DNA of 64,000 nucleotides, taken from Chthoniobacterales bacterium (GTDB lineage: Bacteria; Verrucomicrobiota; Verrucomicrobiia; Chthoniobacterales; UBA6821). The translations under genes were made by a program, and so were the position numbers. Numbering within the stretch: the stretch's first letter is position 1; each line of letters begins with the position of its first letter. The notes under the pieces are model-generated. The model saw nothing but the letters and a program-made list of their open reading frames with translations, did no database searches and was not told where the DNA came from. The DNA lies in contig JAIEQL010000040.1 of NCBI GenBank assembly GCA_019747735.1, positions 3,179 to 67,178 on the forward strand. Reading direction: 5' to 3'. Below, in pieces: positions 698 through 62,040 of this stretch.

Positions 698-702
698 AGT
701 AA

Positions 703-836
703 AGAGTGAAGAGTAAAGGGTGAAGAGTATTTTGAGGTTGAAAATAAGATCAATGCTTTCAATTCATTCTTTTTTAAGAAAAAGGATCATAGAAAATTTT
801 GTTTTCACACTCTTCACCCTTCACCCTATACCCTTC
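703..836. repeat. Inverted pair of heptamer word arrays (agagtga/agggtga versus ctcttca/cccttca)
   Basis: The left arm has four 7-nt words (703..730). The right arm has four complementary 7-nt words (809..836). The perfect 12-bp core agggtgaagagt (717..728) pairs with actcttcaccct (809..820). Confidence 0.7.
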
Positions 837-904
837 ATAATCGTTCTGCTGAACGGTTACATCTTTTTGCTCCCCTTTTGCTTCCTTTTTGCTACCTTTA
901 AGGC

Positions 905-1650: not shown

Positions 1651-1732
1651 ATGACTATCGGCATTTCCTTAACTTTTTTTAGCAGGCCTTACAGCCTATC
1701 GCCTACAGTCCATAGCCTATGACCATCGGCAT
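1651..1732 (+). repeat. Duplicated gene start (atgacYatcggcat x2) flanking a 54-nt insert ending in four AGCCTAT-like heptamers
   Basis: 1651..1664 atgactatcggcat and 1719..1732 atgaccatcggcat match 13/14. The insert ends agcctat cgcctac agtccat agcctat directly at ATG 1719. Confidence 0.8.
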
Positions 1733-4566: not shown

Positions 4567-4618
4567 AAATTTACTCAGGATTGTGAGTAAATTTACTCAG
4601 GGCGTCGAGTTAAATTAC

Positions 4619-10854: not shown

Positions 10855-10934
10855 TATTGGAAGTCAGCATGGCTTGGATCGTGGAGAAGCTCACTTTTTT
10901 TCGAAACCGGCACTGAATTGGTTTTATTAACACT

Positions 10935-12491: not shown

Positions 12492-12852
12492 GAGGAGAAA
12501 AGATTATAGGGATGGAAGCAGTAGAAAGAAAAAATAAAGTAATGGGTAATGAGTGCTTTTAGACTGAAAAAAATTAGGTTTCAGGAAATTTCATTTTTAC
12601 AGAACATATTTTCAAAACAAGCATCTCTAGAACAGCTTGAGCTGCGATTCATCACTGGCCAGCAGTTACTTTTTTTACTGCTTGGCAACATAACATTATA
12701 AAGCGCAAAGCGCCTTTTTGCACTTCAACTTCAACTTTCGTCGTTTCGCAAAGAAATTAACTTCCTTTTCAAAAAATCGCTCCAAAATCCCCTTAACTTA
12801 CTGCTTCGGGCTAGCCGTAACTTAAGGAAGGTGATAAAATCTTGGTCTTTTT

Positions 12853-14244
12853 ATGCCCAGTTTTTTTATTAAGACCTATGGTTGTCAGATGAACGAGCGT
12901 GACTCCGAGCAGGTCGCTCGTGATTTGATTGCTCGTGGTTATGAAATGGCTTCGCATGAAAAAGAGGCTGATGTCATTTTGCTCAATACTTGTAGTGTGC
13001 GTGAAATGGCCGAAAATAAGGCGATTGGCAAAATGGGGTTTTTGCGCAAGCTTCGTCGTAACAAACCGCAGCTTGTGCTCGGGCTTTTAGGGTGTATGGC
13101 CCAGCGCTTGGGAGAAACACTCACCAAAAAAACACCTTATGTTGACTTAATCGTAGGGACTCAAAAATTTCACCGTGTTGCCGACTATGTTGAGGAAGCG
13201 CTGCAGCGTAGGAAACAAGAGGAAGAAGAGTATGACGAATTTCATCAGCTGACAGCTTCTTTTCATGCGCCCATTGTCGATGTAGGAGCCGAAGAAGATT
13301 CGCAAAACACTATTCGTGAACATCTCACTACGCCCCAGCAAGCGACGGCGTTTATTTCCATCATGCAGGGATGCAACATGCACTGTACATTTTGCATTGT
13401 TCCCACGACACGAGGTCCTGAGCGAGGACGTCCGATTCAGGATATTGTCCAAGAAGCCAGAGCACTCGTTGCTCAAGGCATTAAGGAGGTGACCCTTCTT
13501 GGCCAAATTGTCAATCTCTATGGGCGTCATGAAATACCGCGCCGTGATGCAAAAAGTCCTTTTGTGCAGCTTCTCGAAGCATTGCATGAAGTCGAGGGAC
13601 TTGAACGTATTCGATTTACCTCTCCTCATCCTATGGGTTTTCGACGTGATCTCATTGATTGTATTGGACGACTTCCAAAAGTCATGGAGCATATTCATCT
13701 TCCGCTACAATCAGGTTCTGATCGCATCTTGCGCCAAATGCATCGTCCTTACACAACAGCTGCTTATCGCAAGCTGGTTGCAGAGCTGCGTGGGGCACGT
13801 CCTGGTATTGCGATCACTACTGACATTATCGTTGGTTTTCCTGGCGAAACCGAAGAGGACTATCTCGCCAGCCGTACTCTTGCTCAAGAACTCGAATTTG
13901 ATGGGGCCTTTATTTTTCGTTATTCTCAACGAGGTGACACTCCTGCTGCTACCATGGAAGGTCAGCTTCCTGAAGAGATAAAAGAATTTCGCAACAAAGA
14001 TCTTTTGGAAGTAGTTAATGCCTCTGCCTCCCAAAAATTAAACGCCTGTGTCGGAACCCTTCAGGAAGTTCTTTGTGAAGGCCCAAGCCGTCATGATGCT
14101 TCCCAGCTGGCAGGACGCACCCGCACCAATAAGATTGTTATTTTTGAAGGGGGATCTCGTTTTCACCGTGAAATTTTTCATCTTCGTATTACGAGAGCCT
14201 CTTCATCGACGCTTTATGGCACTCCTGCGTTGATTGAGGAATAA
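12853..14244 (+). CDS. miaB: tRNA-2-methylthio-N6-dimethylallyladenosine synthase
   Basis: UPF0004 N-terminus (FIKTYGCQMN), radical-SAM CNMHCTFC and a TRAM C-terminus. Confidence 0.9.
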   Translation: MPSFFIKTYGCQMNERDSEQVARDLIARGYEMASHEKEADVILLNTCSVREMAENKAIGKMGFLRKLRRNKPQLVLGLLGCMAQRLGETLTKKTPYVDLIVGTQKFHRVADYVEEALQRRKQEEEEYDEFHQLTASFHAPIVDVGAEEDSQNTIREHLTTPQQATAFISIMQGCNMHCTFCIVPTTRGPERGRPIQDIVQEARALVAQGIKEVTLLGQIVNLYGRHEIPRRDAKSPFVQLLEALHEVEGLERIRFTSPHPMGFRRDLIDCIGRLPKVMEHIHLPLQSGSDRILRQMHRPYTTAAYRKLVAELRGARPGIAITTDIIVGFPGETEEDYLASRTLAQELEFDGAFIFRYSQRGDTPAATMEGQLPEEIKEFRNKDLLEVVNASASQKLNACVGTLQEVLCEGPSRHDASQLAGRTRTNKIVIFEGGSRFHREIFHLRITRASSSTLYGTPALIEE

Positions 14245-14254
14245 ACAGCTTCTG

Positions 14255-15214
14255 ATGAGTGTTTTTTTTCATCATTTCTTTGCTGTGAGAAAAATAGACA
14301 AGCAAGCAAGAAGTAGAGTGTTCTCTTTCTTGTTGTCCTTATCTATCCATCTGCTTTTTGTTTTGCTCCTCTGTGTCGGTATCCTTCCTTTTGCTTCACG
14401 CTCTCTTGAGCCTGTGCCTAACAAAGAAAGTTCTCCTCCTCCTGAAGTTATTTTTGACCTTTCTCCCTCGACCACAATGGTGCCGACTACCGTCAGGACA
14501 GATTCTGAGCATCCATTAGAGAAGCCTCCAGAGCATCCTGCTTTTGAATCTCACGAAAACACCGAGGCCTCCAGTGAGCTTCCTGCTACCGGTTCGCTGC
14601 CTCTTCCCACACAAGAAGGAGTTGAGAGTGAGGGAGTCGAACTAAAAACATCAGAAACTCTTGGAAGAAAAACACCCGACTCCACAGTAACTGCCGAAGC
14701 AGCTCCCACTACCACACCAACTCCTTCCCCTACTGGATCAACGTCAGTAGATGCTCCCGCGGTAACGCCGATGGCTACCGCTTCCTCAGATCGCCCAGTG
14801 ATGGGTATACTTTCTTCTTCGGCCAAAACTCAGAGCGAATCCTCGGGGGCGCATCCCTCGATGATTCATGGAGCTATTTCTAATAAAGGAAAATCTTCTG
14901 TCACTGCTGAAGCGACACCGTTAGGGCGCTATAAAAAAAATTTGGCAGATGCCATCAGCTCGCATTGGTACTACGCAATTGATCAGCGAATGGAGCTGCT
15001 CAGCTTTGGAACGGCAACAGTTATTTTTTATGTCACTCAAAATGGAAAGGTAGAAGAACTCCGTATTATTTCTAATAGCTCCAATCAGACTTTTGCCGAC
15101 TGTTGTATTGAGTCCATTACAGGAGCCAAGCTTCCTAGCATTCCTCCAGAAATAGCCCAAACACTTGATCGTGGGCGGTTGGAGATAGAGTATCGATTTA
15201 CGATTTATCCGTAG
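14255..15214 (+). CDS. Membrane-anchored Pro/Thr/Ser-rich protein with possible TonB-like C-terminal domain
   Basis: N-terminal TM helix, a long low-complexity P/T/S/E linker and about 90 aa of C-terminal globular region. The start is moved to Met8 to clear the miaB stop. Confidence 0.4.
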   Translation: MSVFFHHFFAVRKIDKQARSRVFSFLLSLSIHLLFVLLLCVGILPFASRSLEPVPNKESSPPPEVIFDLSPSTTMVPTTVRTDSEHPLEKPPEHPAFESHENTEASSELPATGSLPLPTQEGVESEGVELKTSETLGRKTPDSTVTAEAAPTTTPTPSPTGSTSVDAPAVTPMATASSDRPVMGILSSSAKTQSESSGAHPSMIHGAISNKGKSSVTAEATPLGRYKKNLADAISSHWYYAIDQRMELLSFGTATVIFYVTQNGKVEELRIISNSSNQTFADCCIESITGAKLPSIPPEIAQTLDRGRLEIEYRFTIYP

Positions 15215-15289
15215 AGCATGTCCCAAAAGGCCTAAAATCTCGCACTGCAGCGTCGCCGTAATGCGCAATTTTAGTCTTTTCAAGACACC
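15212..15289 (+). repeat. MITE family A-related fragment (TA|GAGCAT end joined to the ...cgccgtaatgcgcaattttagtcttttcaagacacc module)
   Basis: It shares the GAGCATG terminus with family A. Its 3' 45 nt match 38590..38633. The TA of the upstream gene's TAG stop (15212..15214) is the junction. Confidence 0.65.
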
Positions 15290-15350
15290 TTCTTAAGAAC
15301 ACCTTGCTGAATAGTCGCTAGTTTCTTATCTTTGGCAGCAATCATTTTGT

Positions 15351-18135: not shown

Positions 18136-18309
18136 TAGAGCATATTAAAAAATTCTGTAGCCGCTCATTGCGTCGTCGCTTCGGTGCTCGCTCCATCGAG
18201 TATTGGCTATACACTTCCTCGCTGTGTGGCTCAGCTCCTGGCACTGCATCGACTACAAAAATTTTTAATGATGCTCTAAAATGGCTATAGTTTTATTTAA
18301 AATGCTCTA
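18136..18309 (-). mobile_element. MITE-like element, family A copy 1 (GAGCAT...ATGCTC termini, TA flanks)
   Basis: About 170 bp with TA at both ends. It is near-identical, as reverse complement, to 32229..32402. The TA at 18308..18309 is part of the GH1 stop codon. Confidence 0.8.
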
Positions 18310-19635: not shown

Positions 19636-19648
19636 TAAGAATTTTTTT

Positions 19649-19728
19649 AAGAGTTTAAGGGTTGAAGGGTTTAAGAGGCAACAATACGATTCTCCTAAAC
19701 TTCTAAACTCTTCAACTCTTAAACTTTT
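19649..19728 (+). repeat. 29-bp-stem hairpin built from 8-nt word arrays, filling the divergent intergenic region
   Basis: 19649..19677 pairs with 19700..19728: 24 Watson-Crick, 4 G-U and 1 A-C when read on the + strand. The right arm ends 2 nt before the GTG start at 19731. Confidence 0.7.
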
Positions 19729-19730
19729 TA

Positions 19731-20612: not shown

Positions 20613-20619
20613 GAAGAAA

Positions 20620-20710
20620 TTCACCACAAAGATCACAAAGCCGCTTAACGCGGCATACAAAGAACACAAAATAAAAAAAATCTTTTGTGTTCTTTGTGTT
20701 CTTTGTGGTG
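20620..20710. repeat. Nested palindrome of CACAAAG-type words with a central gccgc-ttaa-cgcggc hairpin
   Basis: tcaccacaaagatcacaaag pairs with ctttgtgttctttgtggtga. The inner pair is acaaagaacacaaaa / ttttgtgttctttgt. The same words recur at 43806..43950. Confidence 0.7.
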
Positions 20711-20755
20711 AGTTCTTTTTTGAAATGAAATGACGTTGGTAGTTACAGAGCTTTT

Positions 20756-22126: not shown

Positions 22127-22213
22127 AATGAGTTGAAGTTGGAAGTTGAAGTTGAAGTGAATTCTTTCAGCTGACATTTTTTTTATTCTAATTATCTTTG
22201 GCGGTTTTATTTC

Positions 22214-23788: not shown

Positions 23789-23928
23789 CTTCTGTCCTAA
23801 ATTCTACTGATGAGGCGAAGAGCTGTGTCGCGCCAGTGCTCGCGTCGTCGAGTATGTTCATATACACTCCTCCGCTGTGCGCTGTCGCTCCTTGCTCTTT
23901 ATCTCCATCAGCGAATTTTGAACAGAAG
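23789..23928. repeat. 140-bp palindromic element related to MITE family A (TIR CTTCTGTYCWAAATTC..CTGATGRAG)
   Basis: It starts 1 nt after the oppA-like stop. The central gtgctcgc..tcgagtat..catatacac.tcctc.gctgtg resembles the family A centre. Confidence 0.65.
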
Positions 23929-23962
23929 TTAGACGGGTTCTCTTTCCATCTTTTTTAAAATC

Positions 23963-30005: not shown

Positions 30006-31054
30006 TTGCCGACCAAACTAGTTATGAAGAGTTTCTTTCCTTTTTAGAAACTCAAACAGAGATCGCTTTAGATACTGAGGCAGATAGTTTGCATTGCTAT
30101 TTTGAAAAACTTTGTCTCATTCAAGTGGGAGCTTCTGAGCAATTTTCCCTCATTGATCCATTAGTTCAACTTCCGCTAACGCAGTTTTTTTCAGCATTGG
30201 AAGGTAAGCGTCTGATTTTTCATGATGCTGATTATGATCTAAGGCTCTTACGGCGTTCAGGCTCTTTTCCTGATCAATCTATTTTTGATACGATGCTTGC
30301 TGCACGGCTCTGTGGAGAGCCGAGGCTTGGCTTAGCAGCTCTTGTCGAAAAATATTTTGACGTGTCCCTTTCCAAAGCCTCTCGTAAAGCCAATTGGGGG
30401 CAGCGACCACTTTCCTCTCAGATGCTTGAGTACGCTCTTAACGACGTTCGTTATCTTTCTGGATTGGTATCTATTTTTGAAGAAAAATTGCACGAGTTAG
30501 GGCGCCTTGAATGGTTTTATCAATCATGCAATCGAATGGTGCACGCTACTCGTGCGATTCGGGTTAAAGAGGAAGATCATCTTTGGCGTCTTTCAGGCTA
30601 TGTGGCATTGCCACCCCAAAGTTGGGCTGTCCTGAAGGCTCTCTGGTGGTGGCGTGATGGAGAAGCTCGTAAGTGCGACAAGCCTTCTTTTTACATTATG
30701 TCTCATGAAGAGATGCTTTCTATTGCTGAAAAAGCTCCTCAAGGAAAAAAATGGGAACTTCGCAAGCTACCCAAAGCGCGTGAGGAAGAAATAGAACAAA
30801 TCATCGTAGCAGCATTGCAATTAAAAGAAGAAGAATGGCCTCAAGCTCTTCCTCGAATCAAAAATCATATGAACAAAGATGAGCAACATCGCTTTCAGAA
30901 ATTGCAACAACAACGTGATCGTGTTGCCCAAAAAATTGCTTTGGATCCTTCTGTTATCGCTTCCAAAAATGCCATGGAAGCAGCAGCGCGTGATAAGAAC
31001 ACTCCTTTGCTCTTGCCGTGGCAGCGGGAGTTGTTAGGGATAGGGTTAAGTTAA
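30002..31054 (+). CDS. rnd: Ribonuclease D-like 3'-5' exonuclease with HRDC region
   Basis: DEDDy motifs are ALDTEAD, FHDADYDL and YALNDVRYL. The only available start is a TTG overlapping the nuoC stop. Confidence 0.75.
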   Translation: MIADQTSYEEFLSFLETQTEIALDTEADSLHCYFEKLCLIQVGASEQFSLIDPLVQLPLTQFFSALEGKRLIFHDADYDLRLLRRSGSFPDQSIFDTMLAARLCGEPRLGLAALVEKYFDVSLSKASRKANWGQRPLSSQMLEYALNDVRYLSGLVSIFEEKLHELGRLEWFYQSCNRMVHATRAIRVKEEDHLWRLSGYVALPPQSWAVLKALWWWRDGEARKCDKPSFYIMSHEEMLSIAEKAPQGKKWELRKLPKAREEEIEQIIVAALQLKEEEWPQALPRIKNHMNKDEQHRFQKLQQQRDRVAQKIALDPSVIASKNAMEAAARDKNTPLLLPWQRELLGIGLS

Positions 31055-31108
31055 AGAGGTCGAGTTTGAACGGTTTTTAAAAAGAATTAGTTTCACATGC
31101 TTTTTACA

Positions 31109-31210
31109 GTGAAAGTTGAAGTTGAAATTATTTGGACTTTGCCTTCGGCAAAAAAATCTATTGTTTAGCCCCGCTAGTGGCCTAATGGTGCTTCAACTTC
31201 AACTTTTCAC
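31109..31210. repeat. Inverted pair of GTTGAA hexamer word arrays around a ttgcc-ttcg-ggcaa mini-hairpin
   Basis: gtgaaagttgaagttgaa (31109..31126) pairs with ttcaacttcaacttttcac (31192..31210). The right arm continues to within 10 nt of the nadC start. Confidence 0.75.
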
Positions 31211-31228
31211 TTCAACTTAATTTCATTG

Positions 31229-32095
31229 ATGAACCCTTCCACCCTAGCACTCATTAAAACTGCCCTTGCCGAGGACATCGCTACAGGTGATATCACTTCT
31301 ATGGCCTTTATTCCCGAAGCGATGAGAAGTCACGGACGTATCATCACTCGTCATCCAGCGGTGATTGCAGGATTAGCAGTGGCAATAGAAGTTTTTCGCC
31401 AAGTTGATTCTAATAATGAGGTCACCCTTTGTGCTGCAGAGGGAGAGGGTTTGGAGGCAGGTGCACCTTTATTGGAAGTGAGTGGACCAACACGAAGCTT
31501 GCTCACAGCAGAAAGAGTTGTTTTGAATTTTTTGGGACGCCTTACTGGAATTGCTAGTCTCACGCGTCGTTACGTTGATGCCGTTGTAGGAACAGGAGTT
31601 CTTATTTTGGACACCCGTAAGATGACTCCCGGTTGGAGAATCCTGGAAAAAGAAGCTGTGAAAGCCGGAGGAGGGAAAAATCATCGTCAGGGGCTCTTCG
31701 ATGCCATCTTGGTGAAAGATAACCATCTTGTGGCACTCGGGCCTGAGGGATTATCGAGACTTCCTCAGGTGCTTCAAAAAATACGAGCAGATCATCCAAC
31801 GTTGAAAATTGAAATAGAAGCAGACACCCTCGAACAAGTCTCTTTTTTCTTAGAGCAGCGCGAGGTCAATACCATTCTCCTTGATAATATGAGCCTTGAG
31901 CAGCTGCGTACTGCAGTAGCGTTGCGCCAGCAAAAGAATCGTAATGTACGTCTTGAAGCCAGTGGTGGAATTACCTTGGAGAAAATTCGAGCCGTCGCAG
32001 AGACAGGCATTGATGAAATTTCTTTGGGAGCGTTGACTCATTCGGCAGTGTGGGCAGATTTGTCAATGGAGTTTGAATATACCTTTGTCGGATAA
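31229..32095 (+). CDS. nadC: Nicotinate-nucleotide pyrophosphorylase (carboxylating)
   Basis: Typical QPRTase pattern: EDI..GDITS, LTAERV.LNFL, KDNH, EASGGI. Confidence 0.9.
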   Translation: MNPSTLALIKTALAEDIATGDITSMAFIPEAMRSHGRIITRHPAVIAGLAVAIEVFRQVDSNNEVTLCAAEGEGLEAGAPLLEVSGPTRSLLTAERVVLNFLGRLTGIASLTRRYVDAVVGTGVLILDTRKMTPGWRILEKEAVKAGGGKNHRQGLFDAILVKDNHLVALGPEGLSRLPQVLQKIRADHPTLKIEIEADTLEQVSFFLEQREVNTILLDNMSLEQLRTAVALRQQKNRNVRLEASGGITLEKIRAVAETGIDEISLGALTHSAVWADLSMEFEYTFVG

Positions 32096-32228
32096 ATTTT
32101 AGGTTTTTTTTACGCAGGAATTAATTCCTAAAATTCATTCGAGAAAGGTATAAACTCTTTGTTATTCTGAGGAGCAATGAAAAAAGCGTTCATTTATCAA
32201 CAAGACTCTTTTGCTGGTACACTCGGGC

Positions 32229-32402
32229 TAGAGCATTTTAAATAAAACTACAGCCATTTTAGAGCATCATGAAAAATTTTTGTAGTCGATGCAGTGCCAG
32301 GAGCTGAGGCGCACATCGAGGGAGTGTATAGCCAATACTCGATGGAGCGAGCACCGAAGCGACGACGCAATGAGCGGCTACAGAATTTTTTAATATGCTC
32401 TA
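32229..32402 (+). mobile_element. MITE-like element, family A copy 2
   Basis: TA|GAGCATTTTAAAT...ATTTTTTAATATGCTC|TA. It differs from the reverse complement of 18136..18309 at only about 10 positions. Confidence 0.8.
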
Positions 32403-32579: not shown

Positions 32580-35500
32580 ATGAAAAAACTTCCCCTTGTT
32601 TTTCTCCTGGGCACTCTCGCGCTCGCACCTGTGCGCGTGAGTGCGATGACGGAAGCGGACAAAAAAGAAGAGCATAAAAAGTCGGGTGATTCAAAAGGAA
32701 CCCTCCCAAAAAACACCGACGAGAAATGGCTCAAAGCTCATGAAAAAGCCATTGGGGAAGTTAATAGTCCTCCAGTTAACAACAACACGGAAACTGAGAT
32801 TGAGGTATTTGTTGAGAAGGGTGAAATCATCGAGGATAACACTCTGAAACCGACTTCCAATGCTGATGCTCAACCCAACTCGTCACTAGTTAACGCTGAT
32901 GAAGAAAGTGAAAAGGAAGATCTTTTCAATCTAGATGTTTTAGAACAAAGACTACAAGAGGCTCGAGAGGTCGTTGCTGATTTACGAGGAAAGGGGACTG
33001 CGCTTTCAGAACAAGAACTCAGCGGTCTTTATCAAAAGTGGACTAATCGATACGAACGTTACGAAAAAAAGTCAGATATTTTTGAGCGAACGAATAACAT
33101 TGGAACCATCGCAGGGCAGCAAATTGAAGAGCGACTAAAAAAGCTTTTAAAAACTTCTGCTGAGGCTATGCAAGCGCTTAAGCAAAGCTTAGAAAACATT
33201 ACTCAAGGTTGCGCAACACGCACTGATGATGTCGGCCACTTTCACTTTAAAAAAGAGGAACCTAACTTAGAAGCGCTTGTTAGTTCCTACGATTACAGCA
33301 CCACAGAGAATCATTCAGTCTTTTGGACAGGATGGCATCCCAATTCTTCTCAATGCAATTTTGAGCGAGCTAAAGAATATGCAACACGCACTAATAAAAA
33401 AGTTTTAGAGATAACTCCAGGAGGAGAGAGGCTGGGAGCACAGGGTTTTCATAATCCAGAGTCTTACCTTAATAAGCGTGATGCCGATTTTATTTGGGGA
33501 GTTGCTTCTAGGAGATTTGTTGAAGGAGCTTCGGGACATGTGGTCGCTTTTGTGTTAGAGAAAGTCGATCCCTTTACAACTTATCGCAAAATGGAAAAGC
33601 CAGTATTGAAGAGCAAGGAAACGGCTTTCTTGAGCGAAGTTATTGTTAAGCGAGATCAGAAGCTATTGCTCACAGAGGCTGAGCAAGAGTTATTTGAGCG
33701 CGAGCAAGCAGTAGAAAAAAAGCTTCATCCTCTTTTTCAAAACGTCAGAACTGCATGGGAGAAGATAGGGAATTATTCCGCCTTTCATCCCGATAACATT
33801 CGCGACTTTTTAGGGAGCATTGATGTTAAGAACCAATCGACCTCAGTCCAGCAGGAGCTCTCTCAGTTTGCTTCCCAGCTAAATCCCTTTACTAAAAAAG
33901 TGAAGGCTCTCTCCGAGGCTTGGGATGAGCTTCGTAAGGCCATTTACAGTTTTCAGCATGAGGGTTTAGAAAATGCACATATTCAGCAAGTGAGTAAGGT
34001 GCGAGAAAAATTTCGCGAGTTAGAGCAGCTTGAGACGGTTTCTAAAACATGGAGTGAAGAATATGACCGCTTTAGGGAGGCTATGCAGTTTTTTGATTAT
34101 CAAATTTTCAAAGCTTATCAAGAGAGGGGCGAAATGGACAAAGCAGCTCGATGGAAAGAAGAGACGAGGATTTATGAAGAAAAACAACAACAACAAATGC
34201 TACAGCAATCTGCTGCACAATTTATCAGAGGGAAGATTATCACAGGGCTTTCTCACTTTGATGACTCTCAAGATTCAAAAAAAGAGTGCTTCCAACAAGA
34301 AGTCTCCATTGATGATATGCCTCCTCTTTTTTCTCAAGAGAAACAATCAGGAACAGTTATTCCAGAAACACCTCCCTATTTGAAGAGCTTCAATAGATTA
34401 AAATTCATTAATCCAATGTTTGCTCTTATAAGGCTGCTTGGCGATTTGCAACAATACATAAAACCAATTGAAGAAAAGGAAGGGTTAGCCAAAAGTTTTT
34501 TTATAACGAGTCCATTGCTAGATAATTACAGGACTTTCTTTGGTAGGCCTACTTATAAAGAGACTATCAATTTTCTTGTCGAGAAATTAGAAGAGGTTCA
34601 AGAATCAAAAATTGAAGAAAGTCTCAATAGTATTACGAAAGACAATGCTATCCTCCAAAGTTACAGCACGACTGCTGAGCTAAAAAATCTCTTAGCTTGG
34701 ATAAAAGAGGAGCATGGTAAATACCGACAAGAAAAACAATGCCTTAAAGAACACGCTGAATCTATTCGAGATGATGAAAAGACAGACTATTCTGACTTTG
34801 ACTGTTGGATATATAAAAAGAAAAAAGAAGAACTCTCACGCCTAGAAAATGAGAAGGAACTTTTGCCTAGTCTATCGTCAAGAATTGACGCTGTCATTTT
34901 AGAAATAGAGAAAACAACAAAAATAGCAAACGACGACTATCATTATACAATAAAAAAACTTACTCCTGAAGCTAGACATGAAGCTGCCATTGCTGAAGGA
35001 GAGAACAGGATTGAACAAGCTGATGCAGCTATGGAACAAAGTGAAGGAAGCTCTTTTTCTAAAAAAGCTACTAAAGAAGATCCTTATGCACCTTATCAAA
35101 AGTTTTATAACTTACTGGACATCTTTGATAAAAAAACAAAACAGCATGCAGAGGCTACTAAAGAAACAATTCGTGCTTACAAAGATACGATTGATGTTTA
35201 CAAAACGCCCCCTAAGGAAAACGGGGAAGAAGTCTCTCCCGCCATTCCTTACGCAGAATGTTTTGAAAGTACTCAGTGTTTAAATGAGGAAAACTTATTA
35301 CTAATAGGAAATGGGGGAAAGAGAACTTTATCAAACAACAGACTGGAAGATATTGTAAAAAAAGATAGTGATAAGGCGAAGGAAAAGGAAAAGGAAGTAA
35401 TTAATAAAAGCTCTTTTTGGGAATATCGAGTTTGGGGTTCTCCTAGCCTTAATGAAGCACGTGAAAATGTTCAAGCTGCTGAAAAACAAATTGAAAGACG

Positions 35501-35966
35501 TGAGAATATTTCCAGGAAGATTACAGAACAAGCAACAGAAATTCAGAAGACTCAAAACACGTTAGCTCAAAAAAAAGAAGCTGAAACAGAGCTTGCTAAA
35601 GAAAAAGAAAAAGTTACAAAGCAAGCTGAAGAAGAGCGACAAAAGACCTTAAAAGAAAACCAAAAAGAGATAGAAAAATTTTCAAAAAAACATGAGAAAG
35701 ATTTGAAAGATTTGTCTTGCGAACTCTCTAATCAGGAAAGCTTAGAGCAACATAATAAGCACATAAAAAGCAGAATAGTCAATCTTAGTAAAGAGATAAA
35801 AGAAAAAAAAGATGAGATAAAAGAGATAAGAGAAAAAAATAATATAACTACTGATACACCCCTTCTTGATCTCTATAATGGAATCAAAAGTTTGTTTTCT
35901 TGTCCTTCGCATATAACATCTAATGAGGTGAAATGTGCACCACCTCCAGAAGATTTAAATAATTAG
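32580..35966 (+). CDS. Secreted 1128-aa coiled-coil protein with an ADP-ribosyl cyclase/CD38-like domain (about aa 215-358)
   Basis: Signal peptide is MKKLPLVFLLGTLALAPVRVSA. Motifs VFWTGW, EYATRTNKKVLEITPGG, FIWGVASRRFVEGASGHVVAFVL and TTYRKMEKPVL parallel the Aplysia cyclase / CD38 motifs. The rest is K/E-rich helical sequence. Confidence 0.7.
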   Translation: MKKLPLVFLLGTLALAPVRVSAMTEADKKEEHKKSGDSKGTLPKNTDEKWLKAHEKAIGEVNSPPVNNNTETEIEVFVEKGEIIEDNTLKPTSNADAQPNSSLVNADEESEKEDLFNLDVLEQRLQEAREVVADLRGKGTALSEQELSGLYQKWTNRYERYEKKSDIFERTNNIGTIAGQQIEERLKKLLKTSAEAMQALKQSLENITQGCATRTDDVGHFHFKKEEPNLEALVSSYDYSTTENHSVFWTGWHPNSSQCNFERAKEYATRTNKKVLEITPGGERLGAQGFHNPESYLNKRDADFIWGVASRRFVEGASGHVVAFVLEKVDPFTTYRKMEKPVLKSKETAFLSEVIVKRDQKLLLTEAEQELFEREQAVEKKLHPLFQNVRTAWEKIGNYSAFHPDNIRDFLGSIDVKNQSTSVQQELSQFASQLNPFTKKVKALSEAWDELRKAIYSFQHEGLENAHIQQVSKVREKFRELEQLETVSKTWSEEYDRFREAMQFFDYQIFKAYQERGEMDKAARWKEETRIYEEKQQQQMLQQSAAQFIRGKIITGLSHFDDSQDSKKECFQQEVSIDDMPPLFSQEKQSGTVIPETPPYLKSFNRLKFINPMFALIRLLGDLQQYIKPIEEKEGLAKSFFITSPLLDNYRTFFGRPTYKETINFLVEKLEEVQESKIEESLNSITKDNAILQSYSTTAELKNLLAWIKEEHGKYRQEKQCLKEHAESIRDDEKTDYSDFDCWIYKKKKEELSRLENEKELLPSLSSRIDAVILEIEKTTKIANDDYHYTIKKLTPEARHEAAIAEGENRIEQADAAMEQSEGSSFSKKATKEDPYAPYQKFYNLLDIFDKKTKQHAEATKETIRAYKDTIDVYKTPPKENGEEVSPAIPYAECFESTQCLNEENLLLIGNGGKRTLSNNRLEDIVKKDSDKAKEKEKEVINKSSFWEYRVWGSPSLNEARENVQAAEKQIERRENISRKITEQATEIQKTQNTLAQKKEAETELAKEKEKVTKQAEEERQKTLKENQKEIEKFSKKHEKDLKDLSCELSNQESLEQHNKHIKSRIVNLSKEIKEKKDEIKEIREKNNITTDTPLLDLYNGIKSLFSCPSHITSNEVKCAPPPEDLNN

Positions 35967-36011
35967 GGTATTAGTGAAAATGTTGTTCGAATAGGGACAA
36001 AAATGAATTAT

Positions 36012-36203
36012 CCTTAAAACGTGAATGGGCATGAATAATATTTTGTAAGGAGTTGGTTCCAATAGGTTTTTTCAACCGGTGCGGCGTACCTTAAGCCATA
36101 GCTTGCTGTGGCGCTCCTTTTTATACATAAGCTTGCGGTTGGAAAAAATTATTGGGGCCAAGTATATTGCAAAAGATTATCATGATCCGTTCACGTTTTT
36201 AGG
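36012..36203. mobile_element. MITE-like nested palindrome, family C copy 2
   Basis: CCTTAAAACGTGAATGGGCATGAATAAT pairs with ATTATCATGATCCGTTCACGTTTTTAGG. Inner repeats are gttggttccaatagg / ccaataatttt..ccaacc. It ends 2 nt from the stop of the convergent SUMF1 gene. Confidence 0.7.
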
Positions 36204-36204
36204 A

Positions 36205-38457
36205 TTATCGGAATCTCCAAAAAAGATTTAGAAGACCATCTATGGTAATACCAAAACCAGCCATAGCATTCTCAATATCTTTTCCGTAATAAGCACAAAC
36301 AAGGCCTCCTACAATTAATCCGCCAGGGATAAGAATATCAAGAGGAGGTGGCAATAGTAGAGCAGCTTCAGCAGTAGCTTCGATAGCAGCTTCGATAGCA
36401 GGGGTAGCAGCAGCTCCTTCCTCCACGACGGCTTCTTCTAGTAAGGAAGCTGTGGTTGGCGTTGCCCTCACACCAATCCACGTTTTTAGGTATCGTTGTA
36501 TAGCCTCCGGAATGATAAGACCAAAAGTCCAATTTAAGATATTCATACTGGCAGTACTTGCATTCTCAGCAAAATAGGATGGTGACAAATCGTTCCAAGT
36601 TTGCTTAAGGCCATCCCAAAAACGAGCACCTAGTCTTAGCACTCCATACTCTACCTTATGAGCAGGTGATTCTGGTGGTGGTGGAACATTGTAGACCAAA
36701 CGGAATCCAATGGTATTGGTTTTGGTACCTATAGGAATAATCCTTCGCATCGAAGTAATACCTATTTCTCCGGTAATAGGATTAATATTACCATCAAGAC
36801 TCTCGCCACTGTCACTACTCTTTATCTCTGATTTCCACGAACCACCTCGCAGAGCAAAGTCCCATCTCGGCTTAACACTACCTTCAATCTCAATGGTAGC
36901 ATTACGAAACAAAGTCCATTGATCCACGTTCCCAGACATATCATAGAGACCAAAAGGGCTTTTCGTTTTTTTAAAAAATCCTACAGGAGTTATGTAAGGT
37001 GCATTACTCTGAGTATAATGACCATCTAAACAAAAGTTAGCATCATTATTGTTTCTTGTTGCCAGTTCTATACTATTTGTTGGTAGCTCGTCAGTTCCTG
37101 TTCCATACTTATAATAACATTGATTAGTACCTGGAAAACCATCCCAATCTACTGTTGCTTTTTGATAGTATGCAGCCTTATACCACTGGCTTTCTGTGGG
37201 AAGAGACCATCGTGCACCAACATTGGCTATCACAGTGATAGAGATAGCTCTTCCTGTTTTAATTGTTGTTACAGTTCCTTCACTAAGAGTCCCATTAAAA
37301 CTCTTGATAGGAGGATTAGTAATAGTCTTATAAATATCATTAGTTGTATAAATAATATCAAAAGCTCCCGTTTGTGTTGTCCCAGGCCCCTCTTCTCCAA
37401 GTGGTTGTCCATTTTCTATCCAGTTACAAAAAGAAGCAGCTCGGACTCCTGAAATATAGGTAATTGGAAACTTTTCTCGTCCTGGTATCACTTCATAATC
37501 ATAAGGATTGGTCTCTCCAATGCGAGTGATACAGGCAATATTACTATCAGACCCCATGTTGGTATCATACAGTTCATAACGATCATTATTGGTAGCCACT
37601 GCTTTTAAAAAAGCACAGTACTGCTGGGCAGTAACATCAGTAACGCCGATCTGAAAAACATTAGATACAGAACCCAAACCACCCCACTGGAGCTGGTCAT
37701 GTTGATTGCCAGGATCATCAATAGTCGCTAATTCAATTTTAATTGGTTTTGTATTTTTTATTATGACTGGTAGAGCATCATTTCCAGATGTAGATGAGTT
37801 ATCAGGTGAATCCATCAGAAGTGGACTTCCTCCTAGTAAAGGAATGATAGCTCTATTGTTTTCTGGACTTTCTATTGTTGATAAAGAATTGCCTATCGAA
37901 AAAGGAATACCCTTATTTTCGATCATAGCATCACTGCTATCCACACAATCTATTACAAAGTTGGCTCCACTACTCCCTAAGCCAAGCATTGGATCAACAT
38001 TACTTAATGCATTATTACTACTTAGGCGATAGTGAGCATTGGGTGTTGGTAAGAATTGAAAAGCAAGAGCATCACCTCCATTAGTTATGGAAGTTAGGTC
38101 ATAAACACCAGTTTCTGTGTTAGCATCTCCTCCTCCATTTTCCTTCCAATTACAAAACCGAGCTTGCGATATTTTATTAACATAAGTAATAGCAGCAGTG
38201 GTACCTCCTAAAATAGAATAATGATAGGCCCCAGGATGTCCATATCGCTTGATCATTGGAAGGGCATATTGCATTTCAGGATCGTAAAGATGATAAAGAT
38301 CAGTAGTGGCTACCTTGTTAAGAAAATGACAATAGTCATCAAGGGTCACGAGACTTGTAACATATTTAATATCTTCTCGTGCAGAACCAACCTGGTGAAA
38401 GGCCATTAGGAAAAAACTGCAGCAAAAAAAGAATTTTTTTAAAAAAGAAGAAACCAT
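36205..38457 (-). CDS. SUMF1/FGE (formylglycine-generating-enzyme-like) repeat protein with signal peptide and C-terminal membrane anchor
   Basis: Two N-terminal FGE half-domains (FLNKVA...ARFCNW and FLKAVA...ASFCNW) plus the C-terminal signature LYDMSGNVDQW...LRGGSW. The hydrophobic tail is ILIPGGLIVGGLVCAYYG. Confidence 0.75.
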   Translation of the reverse strand: MVSSFLKKFFFCCSFFLMAFHQVGSAREDIKYVTSLVTLDDYCHFLNKVATTDLYHLYDPEMQYALPMIKRYGHPGAYHYSILGGTTAAITYVNKISQARFCNWKENGGGDANTETGVYDLTSITNGGDALAFQFLPTPNAHYRLSSNNALSNVDPMLGLGSSGANFVIDCVDSSDAMIENKGIPFSIGNSLSTIESPENNRAIIPLLGGSPLLMDSPDNSSTSGNDALPVIIKNTKPIKIELATIDDPGNQHDQLQWGGLGSVSNVFQIGVTDVTAQQYCAFLKAVATNNDRYELYDTNMGSDSNIACITRIGETNPYDYEVIPGREKFPITYISGVRAASFCNWIENGQPLGEEGPGTTQTGAFDIIYTTNDIYKTITNPPIKSFNGTLSEGTVTTIKTGRAISITVIANVGARWSLPTESQWYKAAYYQKATVDWDGFPGTNQCYYKYGTGTDELPTNSIELATRNNNDANFCLDGHYTQSNAPYITPVGFFKKTKSPFGLYDMSGNVDQWTLFRNATIEIEGSVKPRWDFALRGGSWKSEIKSSDSGESLDGNINPITGEIGITSMRRIIPIGTKTNTIGFRLVYNVPPPPESPAHKVEYGVLRLGARFWDGLKQTWNDLSPSYFAENASTASMNILNWTFGLIIPEAIQRYLKTWIGVRATPTTASLLEEAVVEEGAAATPAIEAAIEATAEAALLLPPPLDILIPGGLIVGGLVCAYYGKDIENAMAGFGITIDGLLNLFWRFR

Positions 38458-38463
38458 ATCTCT

Positions 38464-38633
38464 TAGAGCATGTTAAATAAAACCACAGCCATTTTAGGGC
38501 ATCATTAAAAATTTTTGTAGTCGATGCAGTGCCAGGAGCTGAGGCGTACAGCGAGGGAGTGTATAGCCAATACTCGATGGAGCGAGCACTGGAGCGACGC
38601 CGTAATGCGCAATTTTAGTCTTTTCAAGACACC
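38464..38633 (+). mobile_element. MITE-like element, family A copy 3 (chimeric 3' end)
   Basis: The first 125 nt or so are collinear with copy 2. The 3' end is replaced by the module also seen at 15245..15289. It begins 6 nt upstream of the SUMF1 gene ATG. Confidence 0.75.
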
Positions 38634-40913: not shown

Positions 40914-40972
40914 GAAAGGGTGGAGAGTTAACTGACAACTGAGAACCGACAACAGGCAACTTCATTATTGAT

Positions 40973-43722: not shown

Positions 43723-43762
43723 AGTTTTGTCCAAGAATGATAAAAAACAGAAGAACTATTCA

Positions 43763-44004
43763 CAGGGATGGAAGCGATAGAAGGGATGGCAGAAAAAAAT
43801 GAATAGCCACAAAAGAACACAAAGAAACGCAAAGATGCCAAACAAAAAAATGTCAGCGGTGTCAGCGGAATAATTAGCTAACTTTAAAAAAATAATGTGC
43901 CTTTTTCTTTGAGTTCCTTTGAGTTCTTTTGTGGCTATTTCTTACATTGATTTTGGACAGAAATGACTCAAACTTCTTTATCCCTTCTATCGCTTCCATC
44001 TCTG
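43763..44004. repeat. 242-bp doubly nested palindrome of GGATGGAAGC and CACAAAG word arrays
   Basis: Outer arms are cagggatggaagcgatagaagggat / atcccttctatcgcttccatctctg. Middle arms are aatagccacaaaagaacacaaagaaacgcaaag / ctttgagttcctttgagttcttttgtggctatt. Confidence 0.8.
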
Positions 44005-44026
44005 TTAGTTTCTTTTTTTTAAAAAT

Positions 44027-44926: not shown

Positions 44927-44970
44927 GCGTTATTGAATGAATCAACAACTTTTACCTTCAACTTATTTTC

Positions 44971-46607: not shown

Positions 46608-46765
46608 GAATAAAGATAGGCTGGAGGCTAGAGGCTGGAGTGTTGTCTGATCGAAAATCAAGTATAATTTCACAACCAATTTTTGCACATAACTTCATAA
46701 GCTTAAAAACAGCAGTACTCAAAAAAAGAGTGATTTGAGAGTGTATGATGAATTAACATCTCATA

Positions 46766-51085: not shown

Positions 51086-51216
51086 TGGGCATTGTACAAC
51101 AATATCCATTAAACTGAGTTGAAAGTGTGCCACTGTGAAGTTAGCGGCATCCCTGCTGGTTCTCGCCTTCGCGAGAACGACATAGGAATCCAGCTATGGA
51201 ACTAAGCTTTGCTTAA

Positions 51217-51336
51217 AAAAGTTGAAGTTGAAGCAACAGATTTTCTGAGTAGCTTAATTTTGTTTTTCAATTTAGAGATCTTTATTTGCTGCGAAGCAGC
51301 CACTAATTAACTTAAACTTTCAACTTAAACTTTTTT
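51217..51336. repeat. Inverted pair of GTTGAA/GTTTAA word arrays abutting the yebC start
   Basis: aaaagttgaagttgaag (51217..51233) pairs imperfectly with cttaaactttcaacttaaactttttt (51311..51336). An internal gctgc-gaa-gcagc hairpin is present. The yebC ATG is at 51339. Confidence 0.65.
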
Positions 51337-51338
51337 CC

Positions 51339-52067: not shown

Positions 52068-52229
52068 TGTATTAAATTGAGAAGGGTACACTATAAGCTT
52101 GCGCTTTTTTCCTAGGACTGAGTTTTAAGCCCTTACGTTATCTTTAGATAGCGCTTCGATCTTAAAGCCTTGTCCTAAGAAAAAAATCTCAGCGCTTCTA
52201 ACGCGCCCTTTTCAATTCAATCCACTATA
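52063..52229 (+). mobile_element. MITE-like element, family B copy 2 (TIR TAGTGKATTRAATTGARAAGGG, TA flanks)
   Basis: The element spans 52065..52227, flanked by TA at 52063..52064 and 52228..52229. Its first three nt are the yebC stop TAG. It shares the conserved about 65-nt core with 1764..1922. Confidence 0.8.
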
Positions 52230-52281
52230 GTTGTGTGATTAGGAAATTATTTCTAAAAATTGTATCTGCGCGGAAACGCTC

Positions 52282-52444
52282 TATATTCAAATTACTTAGA
52301 AAGTACATGAAAGAACGCAGAGATTTTTAGAAAAGGCAAGGCCGAAGAGCGAGCGCTATATCTTATAACGGGAGTAATGAGAACGCGGTCTTTTCCTGAA
52401 AAGATCAAGTCAATTTTGTGTGATTTCTAAGTAATTTGACTATA
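52282..52444 (-). mobile_element. MITE-like element, family B copy 3 (reverse orientation, different TIR)
   Basis: Arms are tatattcaaattacttagaaa / tttctaagtaatttgactata. The reverse complement of the interior carries CCCGTTAT..ATAGCGCTCGCTCTTCGGCCTTGC..AAAAATCTCTGCG. Confidence 0.7.
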
Positions 52445-55526: not shown

Positions 55527-55850
55527 ATGCCATCCTTACTAAAAATTATTATCACTACTTTTAGCGACCAAGAAGTGGCAACCTCTGTGCTTCAGACTCT
55601 TCTTAAAGAGAAGTTGGCAGTATGTGGTACCATCCTTCCTCAAGCTCATTCTATTTATCATTGGCAAGGTAAAATTGAAGAAGCAGAAGAGGTTGTTGTT
55701 TGGATTAAAACTTCTCAAGACTTATTAGTCTCTTGTCAAAATCGCCTCACTCTTCTTCATCCTTATAAAATTGCTGAGCTGATTGTGCTGGAGCCTCTTT
55801 TTGTTGGTGAGGCTTATCAGCGGTGGATTGAAGAGACTCTGGCTGGGTAA
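55527..55850 (+). CDS. cutA: Divalent-cation tolerance protein CutA
   Basis: AVCGTILPQAHSIYHWQGKIEE...KT...HPY fits the CutA1 signature. Confidence 0.85.
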   Translation: MPSLLKIIITTFSDQEVATSVLQTLLKEKLAVCGTILPQAHSIYHWQGKIEEAEEVVVWIKTSQDLLVSCQNRLTLLHPYKIAELIVLEPLFVGEAYQRWIEETLAG

Positions 55851-55994
55851 TGAGTGATGAATAATGGGTAATGGGTAGTACCATTTTCAAAAATCCTCCA
55901 CTTGCGAACAGTAATATAGATTGTGATATTAATGGTAAAATAGTTACGTTTTCTATTGAGAATTTTAGAAGGAACTATACAATCAGCCCTCCTT

Positions 55995-61197: not shown

Positions 61198-62040
61198 TTA
61201 GTTATTTTTCTTGGGCCGCGCGACTAGATAAACACTGAGGCTAAAGGTGAACAAGCCAAAGAGCGCTGTGATAACAAGCGAAAGCAAATAGTGAGAAAAC
61301 GTAGTGGTCGTTCCTAGAGTCAGTGCATCGCGAATGGCAGAGACGGAGTAACTCACAGGATTGAGCAGCCCGACCCAATAGAGCCAACCGCTTCCTGCTG
61401 GCATAGGAAACAAGGCTCCCGACATCATCCAAAGCGGCATGAGAAAAGTCATCATGACAGCATGGAATCCTTGGGTGGAATCCATGGGCCAGGCCACCAG
61501 AAATCCAAGCCCAGTCATGCTAAAGCCAACTAAAATGAAAGCAGGAAAGAGGAGGACGATTTGCCACCATCCAATGGGAATACCGGCAAGAGGAGCTAAG
61601 AGGCAAAAGAAGAATGCTTGCAATACGGCTAAGGTCATTCCTCCTAAAAATTTCCCCAGGGGAATCGTTGCGGCAGAAATAGGAGCGACAAGAGCACCTT
61701 GAAGAAACCCTTCGCGTCGATCTTCAATGACCGAGACGGTAGAAAAAATAGCAGTAAAGAGCATGATGAGGGTAATCGTTCCTGGGAAAAAATAGGTGAG
61801 GTAAGTGCCACTGGCCCCCATTTCTGGATTGTGAAAGGAAGGATTAAATCCAAAACCAACGAGCAACCAAAAAATAAGAGGCGTTGCCAGAGCACTTACA
61901 ATGCGGTTGCGCTGCCGTAGGAATCGCACCACATCCCGCCACCATAACGCATGGACCGGAATCCAGAGGAGGCCACCGCTATGCGGCAGCAGGTCGCAGG
62001 TCACAGATTGCAGGTTGCGGGTATCAGATTGTTGGTTCAT
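61198..62040 (-). CDS. ABC-2 type transporter permease
   Basis: Six TM segments. The ABC-2 layout begins WWRDVVRFLRQRNRIV. It is paired with the upstream ATPase. Confidence 0.8.
   Translation of the reverse strand: MNQQSDTRNLQSVTCDLLPHSGGLLWIPVHALWWRDVVRFLRQRNRIVSALATPLIFWLLVGFGFNPSFHNPEMGASGTYLTYFFPGTITLIMLFTAIFSTVSVIEDRREGFLQGALVAPISAATIPLGKFLGGMTLAVLQAFFFCLLAPLAGIPIGWWQIVLLFPAFILVGFSMTGLGFLVAWPMDSTQGFHAVMMTFLMPLWMMSGALFPMPAGSGWLYWVGLLNPVSYSVSAIRDALTLGTTTTFSHYLLSLVITALFGLFTFSLSVYLVARPKKNN

Follow-up and report, generated by a model that had tools for sequence, protein, structure and literature searches.

Mirrored arrays of short degenerate words at gene boundaries in a Chthoniobacterales genome, possibly the arms of dispersed DNA palindromes

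Gene setting and the rnd-nadC hairpin

We analysed a 64,000-nt stretch of a Chthoniobacterales genome (contig JAIEQL010000040.1, hereafter the window), in which the gap between rnd (RNase D) and nadC contains two mirrored arrays of short degenerate words. Verrucomicrobia are abundant in soil, freshwater and gut. The window has a G+C content of about 43%, and a Pfam search of the open reading frames (ORFs) in its 64 kb gave ordinary housekeeping genes, including nuoB/C, rnd, nadC, bipA, yebC, uvrC, accA, queC/F, ABC transporter genes and others. In genome and metagenome scans, the identity of its NadC to proteins from metagenome-assembled genomes of Chthoniobacterales and other Verrucomicrobiota did not exceed about 71%. 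An exact-protein look-up with nadC, yebC and accA retrieved Logan contigs that are 100% identical to the window, all from one sample series. The whole window gave no Rfam match at gathering thresholds and no tRNA or tmRNA gene, and a known structured RNA (riboswitch, small RNA or tRNA) was rejected on these grounds.

The focal 5' arm (Table 1) begins 54 nt past the rnd stop codon at 31054. The words of the 3' arm run TTCAAC TTCAAC TTTTCAC TTCAAC TTAA, and the ATG of nadC (31229), a start that is also called in the Logan contigs, lies 8 nt beyond the end of this arm, which therefore forms a leader without a Shine-Dalgarno (SD) motif. The two arms pair as a 19-bp stem with one bulge around the spacer, with a minimum free energy of −34.6 kcal/mol (z = −3.4 against 200 shuffles). 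Because the variant unit GTGAAA is mirrored in both arms, they are true inverted copies. Within the spacer, a small stem-loop (TTTGCC-TTCG-GGCAAA, 31139-31153) precedes an A-run; the spacer is unlike those of other GTTGAA loci. The exact 12-mer GTTGAAGTTGAA occurs five times over both strands of the window, at the focal site and at four others, and all occurrences are intergenic.

A promoter consensus scan gave one weak match at the focal site (31103-31131) and no match at the site near 51 kb (51000-51400); inspection by eye of the other hairpin loops for promoters revealed no common motif. A terminator scan of the gene strand over 30900-31300 and 51000-51400 found no terminator-like site.

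Word arrays across the window

Arrays were detected at periods of 5-11 nt after removal of low-complexity runs. Start codons were refined by codon log-odds, which is only partly reliable (it trims signal peptides), and eight shifts were accepted by hand. An initial annotation of the window had listed arrays at gene boundaries; all its sites are present to within a few bases, the one at 44955-44967 being weak and barely over one unit long. The concentration at gene boundaries that it described is also borne out: depending on the threshold, arrays cover 295-483 of the 7,499 intergenic nt (4-6%), compared with 0.3-0.8% of the coding sequence. Dinucleotide shuffles of the same intergenic regions contained 2-45 nt of arrays, so that the observed values are 10-100 times higher, and in 100 shuffles the observed coverage was never attained at any threshold (at one threshold, 295 nt observed versus 2.1 ± 8.2 nt in shuffles).

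The array periods range from 6 to 11 nt, for which the earlier label "heptamer" is too narrow. Units are degenerate (70-100% matches), occur in 2-5 copies and belong to at least 10 word families within the window, most of them without GGG runs. Ten of the 20 intergenic arrays are completely free of either C or G. An inverted partner, defined as at least 75% complementary and within 400 nt, is present for 7 of the 26 window arrays. The pairs (698/808, 19646/19692, 20618/20692, 31108/31192, 43762/43980 with 43802/43906 nested inside, and 51215/51319) occupy six intergenic regions, with a purine-rich 5' arm followed by a pyrimidine-rich 3' arm, spacers of 14 to 192 nt and stems of 18-35 bp. In every one of the six regions, the two arms share a single word family among the roughly 10 that are present. 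The inverted partners that the initial annotation placed 50-100 nt upstream thus do exist as hairpin pairs, with a wider range of spacings and with about half of the arrays being singletons.

The composition of an array follows its position in the intergenic region (Spearman −0.81, p = 1.4e-5, n = 20, for purine content): read on the + strand, arrays in the left part are purine-rich and those in the right part are pyrimidine-rich. Whichever way the gene is oriented, its start is flanked by the arm that, read in the direction of the gene, is rich in pyrimidines and poor in G. Neither this polarity nor the three-letter composition of the arms had been noted in the initial annotation, and the same holds for the mobile non-array palindromes of the window that are treated below. 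The stems are very stable (−34 to −119 kcal/mol). RNA folding favored neither strand, since the sense strand was more stable in 11 and the antisense strand in 11 of 22 hairpins, which places the complementarity at the level of the DNA rather than of a single transcript. Within the window, 33-133 nt often separate the stop codon from the 5' arm.

Arrays as possible translation leaders

Arrays that are rich in pyrimidines when read in the direction of the gene they face end at a median of 10 nt from the start codon, whereas 87 nt is expected at random placement (P about 2e-5, n = 16), which agrees with the start-codon proximity of G-poor arrays proposed in the initial annotation. An SD-like motif was found in 3 of 45 leaders (5 of 59 genes) of the window; with the same script, 10% of the window genes and 69% of those at a Bacillales control locus were SD-like. 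The G content at positions −20 to −1 of the leaders is 11%, versus 19% in intergenic DNA overall. SD-independent, G-poor leaders, one of the roles suggested earlier, fit these data. Verrucomicrobiales, like Bacteroidia, are reported to lack SD sequences globally (PMC10798248), and some Verrucomicrobia have been described as "SD-scarce" (PMC10783764).

The G-free 3' arms carry YC dinucleotides every 6-9 nt and cannot fold alone. As a leader, such an arm is similar to omega, the G-poor, repeat-containing leader of tobacco mosaic virus, which is recognised by ribosomal protein S1 without an SD sequence (PMC13577412). Both consist of three letters only (A, C and U), contain short direct repeats, have no SD motif and do not self-fold, and the arrays, like omega, are G-poor, unstructured sequences directly upstream of a start codon. 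The host clade of the arrays is likewise reported to be devoid of SD motifs (PMC10798248). Unlike the arrays, omega is a viral 5' untranslated region and has no complementary upstream arm.

Distribution and polarity in related genomes

The window was compared with loci of relatives, labelled L001, L002 and so on. Arrays with an inverted partner are present in the verrucomicrobial loci L001-L003, L026, L032, L035, L060, L094 and L106. Three other loci (L083, L087 and L089) show isolated and much weaker paired cases, of which at least that in L083 is probably due to chance. No inverted partner was found among about 200 arrays of non-verrucomicrobial loci (e.g., 0 of 20 in L050); the Methanimicrococcus loci are array-rich, yet their arrays have no partner. 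The words are lineage-specific and include CACAAAGAA, CACRGATGAA, GGGTMCA, GTATGGGA, GGAGTGAT, AGGCTGA and GTTTAA, among others. As to the conservation of arrays versus words, a point raised by the initial annotation, it is the architecture that recurs in other Verrucomicrobiota.

All of the approximately 22 independent pairs first detected have a purine-rich 5' arm. An unbiased inverted-repeat scan of array-bearing loci returned 30 purine-to-pyrimidine and 3 reversed pairs, and these three are not arrays. Turnover is visible between close relatives: L001 and L002 are 85% identical in coding DNA, and most of their intergenic arrays are not alignable.

Copies of one element, AATAGCCRCAAAAGAACRCAAAGAA with its mirror image, could be followed across genomes. 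Its window copy (43802-43939) sits within a GGGATGGAAG hairpin, 4-5 copies are present in 20 kb of L001, and the hemB-nadC junction carries it in L001, L002, L059, L060 and L061. The arms are conserved and the loops are unrelated among copies. In L059-L061 all units of both arms switch together from CAC to CGC, and 7 of 31 stem pairs are changed on both sides, i.e., in a compensatory manner. Elements of the CACAAAG family lie after stop codons and are flanked by A-runs and T-rich or pyrimidine-rich tails (e.g., GTGGCTATTCTCTTCTTCTCTTTTTTT).

At the nadC-birA junction of most Verrucomicrobia relatives, including L083, the nearest relative of L035, the two genes overlap or abut. Array hairpins of differing sequence occupy this junction in L035 and L026 (CACRGATGAA), L094 (GGGTMCA), L106 (GTATGGGA) and L019, bridging the space from the stop codon to a point 0-15 nt short of the start codon; in L026, L035, L094 and L106 the distance from the stop to the 5' arm is 0-6 nt and that from the 3' arm to the start is 0-15 nt. 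This filling of an ancestrally overlapping junction by different hairpins in several lineages lends support to the idea, put forward in the initial annotation, that the arrays are footprints of insertion. In L026, an 82-aa ORF without Pfam match (10863-11111) lies exactly between the arms of the CACAGATGAA hairpin, and the matching position in L035 has only a G+C-rich stem-loop. Hairpins with differing sequences likewise persist at birA-coaX, where L035, L026 and L094 have array hairpins and L083 has GTAG-headed doublets resembling REPINs (hairpin-forming doublets of repetitive extragenic palindromic (REP) sequences). L083 has such doublets at one further site as well, and doublets were recorded in it at 11813-11883 and 15013-15081. 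Such GTAG-headed inverted doublets (TGTAGCGGCGGTCTGTGACCG..., GGTAGGG...CCCTACC) were also seen in L083 at 14019-14072 and in L032 at 1931-2036, and from their sequence they look like classical REPINs.

In L035 (10902-11070) the word ATGAACACGGA is nearly equal to the first bases of the downstream birA (ATGACCACGGA), so that the birA start region is a further possible pairing partner for the last 3'-arm unit. A weaker likeness between word and coding start was seen at L001 nadC. A general derivation of the words from the downstream coding start was rejected, as only 2 of 21 pairs reached p<0.05, which is the level expected by chance.

Other arrays, palindromes and repeats

The window contains further arrays, both paired and single, which are listed in Table 1 with their gene context.

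Table 1. Arrays, palindromes and repeats, with positions in the window unless another locus is named.
Feature	Position	Strand	Sequence and context
Focal 5' arm	31108..31126	+	GTGAAAGTTGAAGTTGAA; (A)GTGAAA GTTGAA GTTGAA; purine-rich, C-free
Focal spacer (loop)	31127..31191	+	65 nt
Focal 3' arm	31192..31220	+	TTCAACTTCAACTTTTCAC(TTCAACTTAA), also written TTCAACTTCAACTTTTCACTTCAACTTAA; pyrimidine-rich, G-free
Inverted pair, 7-nt words	698..837	+	Spacer about 80 nt; arm 698-729 AGTAAAG/AGTGAAG/GGTGAAG (C-free) opposite arm 808-837 CTCTTCA/CCCTTCA/CCCTATA (G-free)
11-nt-word array, three copies	865..899	+	CTTTTTGCTMC; G-poor; stops 5 nt before the antitoxin-like gene start at 905
Degenerate 7-nt words	1690..1718	+	AGCCTAT CGCCTAC AGTCCAT AGCCT; G-poor; runs directly up to the ATG (1719) of the mtnN-like gene (see text)
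Arrays	12505..12560	-	GGGATGGAAG type, then AATGGGT AATGAGT; purine-rich on +; - strand reading is the G-poor leader of uvrC (start 12491)
Singleton, GTTGAA family	12722..12745	+	ACTTCA ACTTCA ACTT; G-free orientation; 107 nt upstream of the start at 12853
Inverted pair, 8-nt words	19646..19728	.	TTTAAGAG / CTCTTAAA types; fills the 95-nt divergent intergenic region (19636-19730); arms are G-free leaders, one per divergent gene (starts 19635 -, 19731 +)
CACAAAG-family hairpin	20618..20714	+	5' arm almost T-free (CACCACAAAGATCACAAAG ... ACAAAGAACACAAAA), 3' arm almost A-free (TTTTGTGTTCTTTGTGTTCTTTGTGGTG); begins 5 nt past the stop at 20612
Singleton AGTTGA array	22131..22163	+	4.5 copies; C-free; no partner; begins 4 nt past the stop of a GH1 gene
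7-nt-word array	40925..40960	-	AACTGAC type; fills the 59-nt gap ahead of the - strand start at 40913
Nested double hairpin	43762..44005	+	Outer arms 43762-43787 / 43980-44005, GGGATGGAAG type, 96% complementary; inner arms 43802-43835 / 43906-43939, AATAGCCACAAAAGAACACAAAGAA type, 91% complementary; Logan contigs of the same clone break inside it
Weak GTTGAA-family remnant	44951..44967	+	CCTTCAACTTATT; G-free orientation; ends 3 nt before the accA start (44971)
Array of three 7-nt units	46615..46640	-	AGGCTGG/AGGCTAG; G-poor leader on the - strand, ends 10 nt before the start at 46607, which is backed by a 243-aa gene call in a Logan contig
GTTGAA/GTTTAA-family hairpin	51215..51336	+	AAAAAAGTTGAAGTTGAAG (51215-51233) opposite AACTTAAACTTTCAACTTAAACTTTTTT (51309-51336); yebC start (51339) 2 nt past the 3' arm
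Singleton, 7-nt words	55844..55882	+	AATGGGT AATGAGT GATGAAT ...; C-free; overlaps the cutA stop (55848-55850)
7-nt-word array	61975..62036	-	GCAGGTC/ACAGATT; at the 5' end of the longest ABC-2 permease ORF, whose Pfam match begins at residue 30; the permease start codon being uncertain, either a leader or N-terminal coding sequence
174-nt repeat, three copies	18136-18309; 32229-32402 (reverse); 38462-38610 (reverse)		See text
Further long intergenic palindromes	9441-9592; 36007-36208; 52061-52231; 52282-52444; 32078-32152		See text
Conserved motif in relatives	L001 12278-12298; L002 12336-12365; L003 12718-12737; L004 12129-12150; L006 6747-6768		GAATTTGAATTTTAGTTTTAGT; see text

The genome of the window has mobile palindromes that are not word arrays, namely a 159-bp element flanked by TA and a repeat of about 174 nt. 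The former is a full-length palindrome with a TA duplication (1764-1922) that interrupts an mtnN-like gene (PNP_UDP_1; 1719-2950). Deleting it together with one TA restores the reading frame and a Pfam match from profile position 1. The same gene has at least two frameshifts, one (about 1972) in a T7 run and a second one near 2400, and is either a pseudogene or a poorly assembled stretch. The 174-nt repeat has palindromic ends and three intergenic copies that are 91-97% identical; it looks like a family of MITEs (miniature transposable elements with inverted repeats) separate from the word arrays. Partial likeness to it was noticed by eye at about 23789-23935 and at 15215-15300. Contigs assembled from the same clone are interrupted within these mobile palindromes. 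The further long palindromes have arms of 20-40 nt and spacers of 90-120 nt, and the end AACGTGAATG is common to two of them. Logan contigs of the same clone end inside several of these palindromes, which suggests that they are multi-copy in the genome.

Some additional sequence features were recorded. An ORF of 1,128 aa at 32580-35966 has no Pfam match and lies in a stretch with 35% G+C, a strong A-skew and many internal short repeats. At 4566-4632, two to three tandem copies of a 22-nt unit, each containing the palindrome TGAGTAAATTTACTCA, are located between two - strand genes; this repeat could be an operator array and is different in kind from the word arrays. In five related genomes, a conserved motif, GAATTTGAATTTTAGTTTTAGT, is found some 2.2 kb beyond the start of nadC, in a matching relative position.

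Comparison with known repeat classes

REPINs have a spacer of low conservation between highly conserved inverted ends (Bertels and Rainey 2011, PMC3116915), and the array hairpins share with them the inverted doublet with conserved ends, variable spacer and long predicted hairpin, as well as compensatory changes, genome-specific variants, an extragenic location and remnant-like singletons. Unlike the small, imperfect palindromes of 20-40 nt that make up a REPIN, the array arms are direct tandem words without internal dyad symmetry, and they show a strict purine/pyrimidine polarity and a three-letter composition. REP sequences have the head tetranucleotide GTAG or CGTC (PMC3733652); none of the window arms starts with GTAG or CGTC or ends with CTAC or GACG. 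MITEs and palindromic repeats such as ERIC, Correia and IS630-derived MITEs resemble the array hairpins in being small, non-coding, intergenic and present in many copies, with terminal inverted repeats; the 82-aa ORF of the L026 hairpin is an exception to the lack of coding capacity. In MITEs the arms are not internally repetitive, in contrast to the array arms, and a genuine MITE-like palindrome is present in the window at 1764-1922.

Head-to-tail short units enriched in intergenic DNA, as found here, are also known as the intergenic heptamer repeats of Xanthomonas (GGGAATC) and the short tandemly repeated repetitive (STRR) sequences of Nostoc/Calothrix (GGGGAYT) (Rehm et al. 2015, PMC4692102). 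Each Xanthomonas genome has 70-75 convergent (inverted) pairs capable of stem-loop formation; the repeats in Xanthomonas and Nostoc vary in length and sequence among close relatives, their function is unknown, and their over-representation was attributed to polymerase slippage (PMC4692102). These genomes have one dominant, near-perfect, G-rich unit that is quadruplex-capable, whereas the window has at least 10 degenerate families, mostly without G-runs; GGGTMCA of L094 would fit a quadruplex unit. The Xanthomonas repeats are closer to the upstream ORF, whereas the pyrimidine-rich arms described here adjoin start codons. A cyanobacterial origin with STRR repeats was considered for the window itself and rejected: there is only one HIP1 site, and the nadC relatives belong to Chthoniobacterales and other Verrucomicrobiota.

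In a CRISPR array, identical repeats of 24-48 nt alternate regularly with unique spacers; this class was rejected on account of contiguous units of 6-11 nt and the lack of an Rfam match. The hairpins also differ from intrinsic terminators, which have a short G+C-rich stem and a loop of 3-8 nt ahead of a T-run: the two focal regions contain no terminator-like site on the gene strand, and the stems of 18-35 bp enclose loops of 14-192 nt. The initial annotation did not recognise the arrays as any described class. This stands with respect to REP/BIME, ERIC and CRISPR, given the missing GTAG/CGTC head, the non-palindromic arms and the absence of a regular repeat-spacer array, and it has to be qualified by the precedents of the Xanthomonas/Nostoc heptamer pairs (PMC4692102) and of the REPIN layout (PMC3116915). 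In the literature we found no description of such arrays in Verrucomicrobia. The features for which no prior description was found are the many word families per genome, the three-letter arms, the fixed purine-to-pyrimidine polarity, the stop-to-start span and the link to SD-less leaders.

Interpretation and alternative explanations

The explanation that we favor, with somewhat less than even confidence, is that the arrays form the arms of a class of dispersed, and probably mobile, DNA palindromes found throughout the lineage, with a REPIN- or MITE-like behaviour but belonging to neither family. They are set apart from these families by lacking palindromic REP units, a GTAG head and a conserved interior, and no clear duplication of the target site is seen. 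Each arm would be made of 2-5 degenerate tandem copies of a 6-11-nt word, the arms being mirrored around a spacer that is free to vary, and the elements would fall into genome-specific word families. They would have been copied into, or spread among, intergenic sites, especially narrow stop-to-start gaps, and would turn over fast. The copying mechanism or arm-to-arm correction would maintain the complementarity of the arms, and slippage probably alters the number of units. If initiation occurs without SD sequences from G-poor, pyrimidine-rich leaders, only palindromes with the purine-then-pyrimidine order would be tolerated beside start codons. The 3' arm, being free of G, of upstream start codons and of any fold of its own, could then act as the leader. 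In a transcript that reads through the junction, the upstream stop codon and the downstream start codon would be held side by side at the foot of the stem, and this adjacency may explain why insertions are tolerated at tightly coupled junctions. It is unlikely, although worth stating, that the elements are self-propagating palindromes homing to stop-start junctions that have been co-opted as a standard intergenic module, with the G-free arm as a ribosome landing pad and the stem preserving stop-start coupling.

Several observations weigh against dispersed mobile palindromes. About half of the window arrays are singletons. Pfam searches of the ORFs in the 64-kb window revealed no transposase, RAYT/Y1 or other mobilising gene, and no RAYT gene is known for the array elements, whereas REP sequences and REPINs go with a cognate RAYT (Y1 transposase) gene that has the same repeats on its flanks. 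No clear, consistent target-site duplication flanks the array hairpins. REPIN spacing is fixed, whereas the array spacers range from 14 to about 370 nt and are wholly different between copies. MITEs have a conserved interior, whereas copies of the array hairpins share their arms only, the spacers of the GTTGAA and CACAAAG copies being unrelated. Among close strains no clean filled-versus-empty polymorphism was found for an array element, all contigs being identical. The compensatory stem changes and the persistence at the same junction fit selection on an RNA or DNA structure equally well. Finally, reversed, pyrimidine-to-purine array pairs occur in other verrucomicrobial lineages (L019 10822-10890, L020 11899-12036 and L066 1338-1428), where they place the purine-rich arm next to the start codon. 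The polarity rule is therefore lineage-wide and not phylum-wide, which weakens the argument for a selective filter. SD usage was considered as a cause of the reversal and rejected, since L019 also looks SD-poor.

Two other explanations, both of which we regard as rather improbable, assign the hairpins a role in RNA or an origin in place. As a dedicated inter-cistron RNA structure, the stem would mask the leader until a ribosome that halts at the upstream stop codon, at the foot of the stem, opens the 5' arm and frees the final 10-15 nt ahead of the downstream start, giving translational coupling without an SD sequence; alternatively, it could be an RNase III site or mRNA stabiliser. The span from stop to start in L026, L035, L094 and L106, the persistence of hairpins at nadC-birA and birA-coaX despite differing sequences, the compensatory changes, the stable stems and a clade without SD motifs are all consistent with such a device. 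However, G:U-tolerant folding prefers neither strand, the 5' arms of the window are often remote from the stop codon, one pair lies between divergent genes, where no single transcript need hold both arms, and the same word families recur at unrelated genes. Furthermore, the ancestral nadC-birA junction is a simple overlap, and the structure is therefore a late addition rather than a conserved device. An origin in place would involve slippage in G-poor leaders combined with template switching (quasi-palindrome correction or fold-back repair), with neither mobility nor function, the arrays persisting because intergenic DNA tolerates them. This would account for the degenerate units, their variable number, the fast turnover between close relatives and the symmetry at the DNA level, and polarity would need no separate cause if the leader next to the start was there first and the upstream arm was copied from it in inverted form. 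It also agrees with the near-identity of the L035 word and the birA start, and with the slippage invoked for heptamer repeats (PMC4692102). On the other hand, identical non-repetitive termini (AATAGCC...GGCTATT) and words are found at non-orthologous sites in different genomes, slippage alone cannot turn a 6-nt junction into a 150-nt palindrome, the likeness of words to neighbouring coding sequence stays at the chance level, and the arms of every pair come from the same family although about 10 families are present.

Two further possibilities seem very unlikely. The arrays might be periodic protein-binding sites, for Rho on the C-rich, G-free 3' arm (with the 5' arm as a mask), for S1, or for a nucleoid or transcription factor. 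The YC spacing in G-free 3' arms that do not self-fold, and the concerted change of all units of a family within a lineage, as if co-evolving with a binder, point in this direction, and S1 binds G-poor repeat leaders (PMC13577412). At least ten unrelated families in 64 kb would, however, require many specific proteins or a purely compositional reader, and the arms measure just 18-35 nt. Rho typically loads on longer sites than this. The remaining candidate, which we rate marginally lower still, is that of unusual bidirectional intrinsic terminators, mainly in the CACAAAG family, with an A-rich tract before and a T-rich tract after the stem. The A-runs, the T-rich or pyrimidine-rich tails and the location of these elements after stop codons agree with it. 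Against this, the terminator scan was blank at the two focal intergenic regions, stems of 20-35 bp with loops of 14-370 nt are unlike those of intrinsic terminators, most families have no T-tract, and hairpins are found within a conserved gene order (nadC-birA-coaX) as well as between divergent genes.

Implications

The arrays break metagenome assemblies and confuse start-codon calling, and annotators of these genomes should therefore be aware of them. As dispersed palindromes, the elements would represent a third type of small palindrome between genes, next to REPINs and MITEs, and they raise the question of what copies them. If they were indeed co-opted self-propagating elements, they would represent a previously undescribed class in Verrucomicrobiota. 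If the G-free arrays are natural leaders, they would provide a concrete, testable sequence element for the poorly understood SD-less initiation of translation in Verrucomicrobia.

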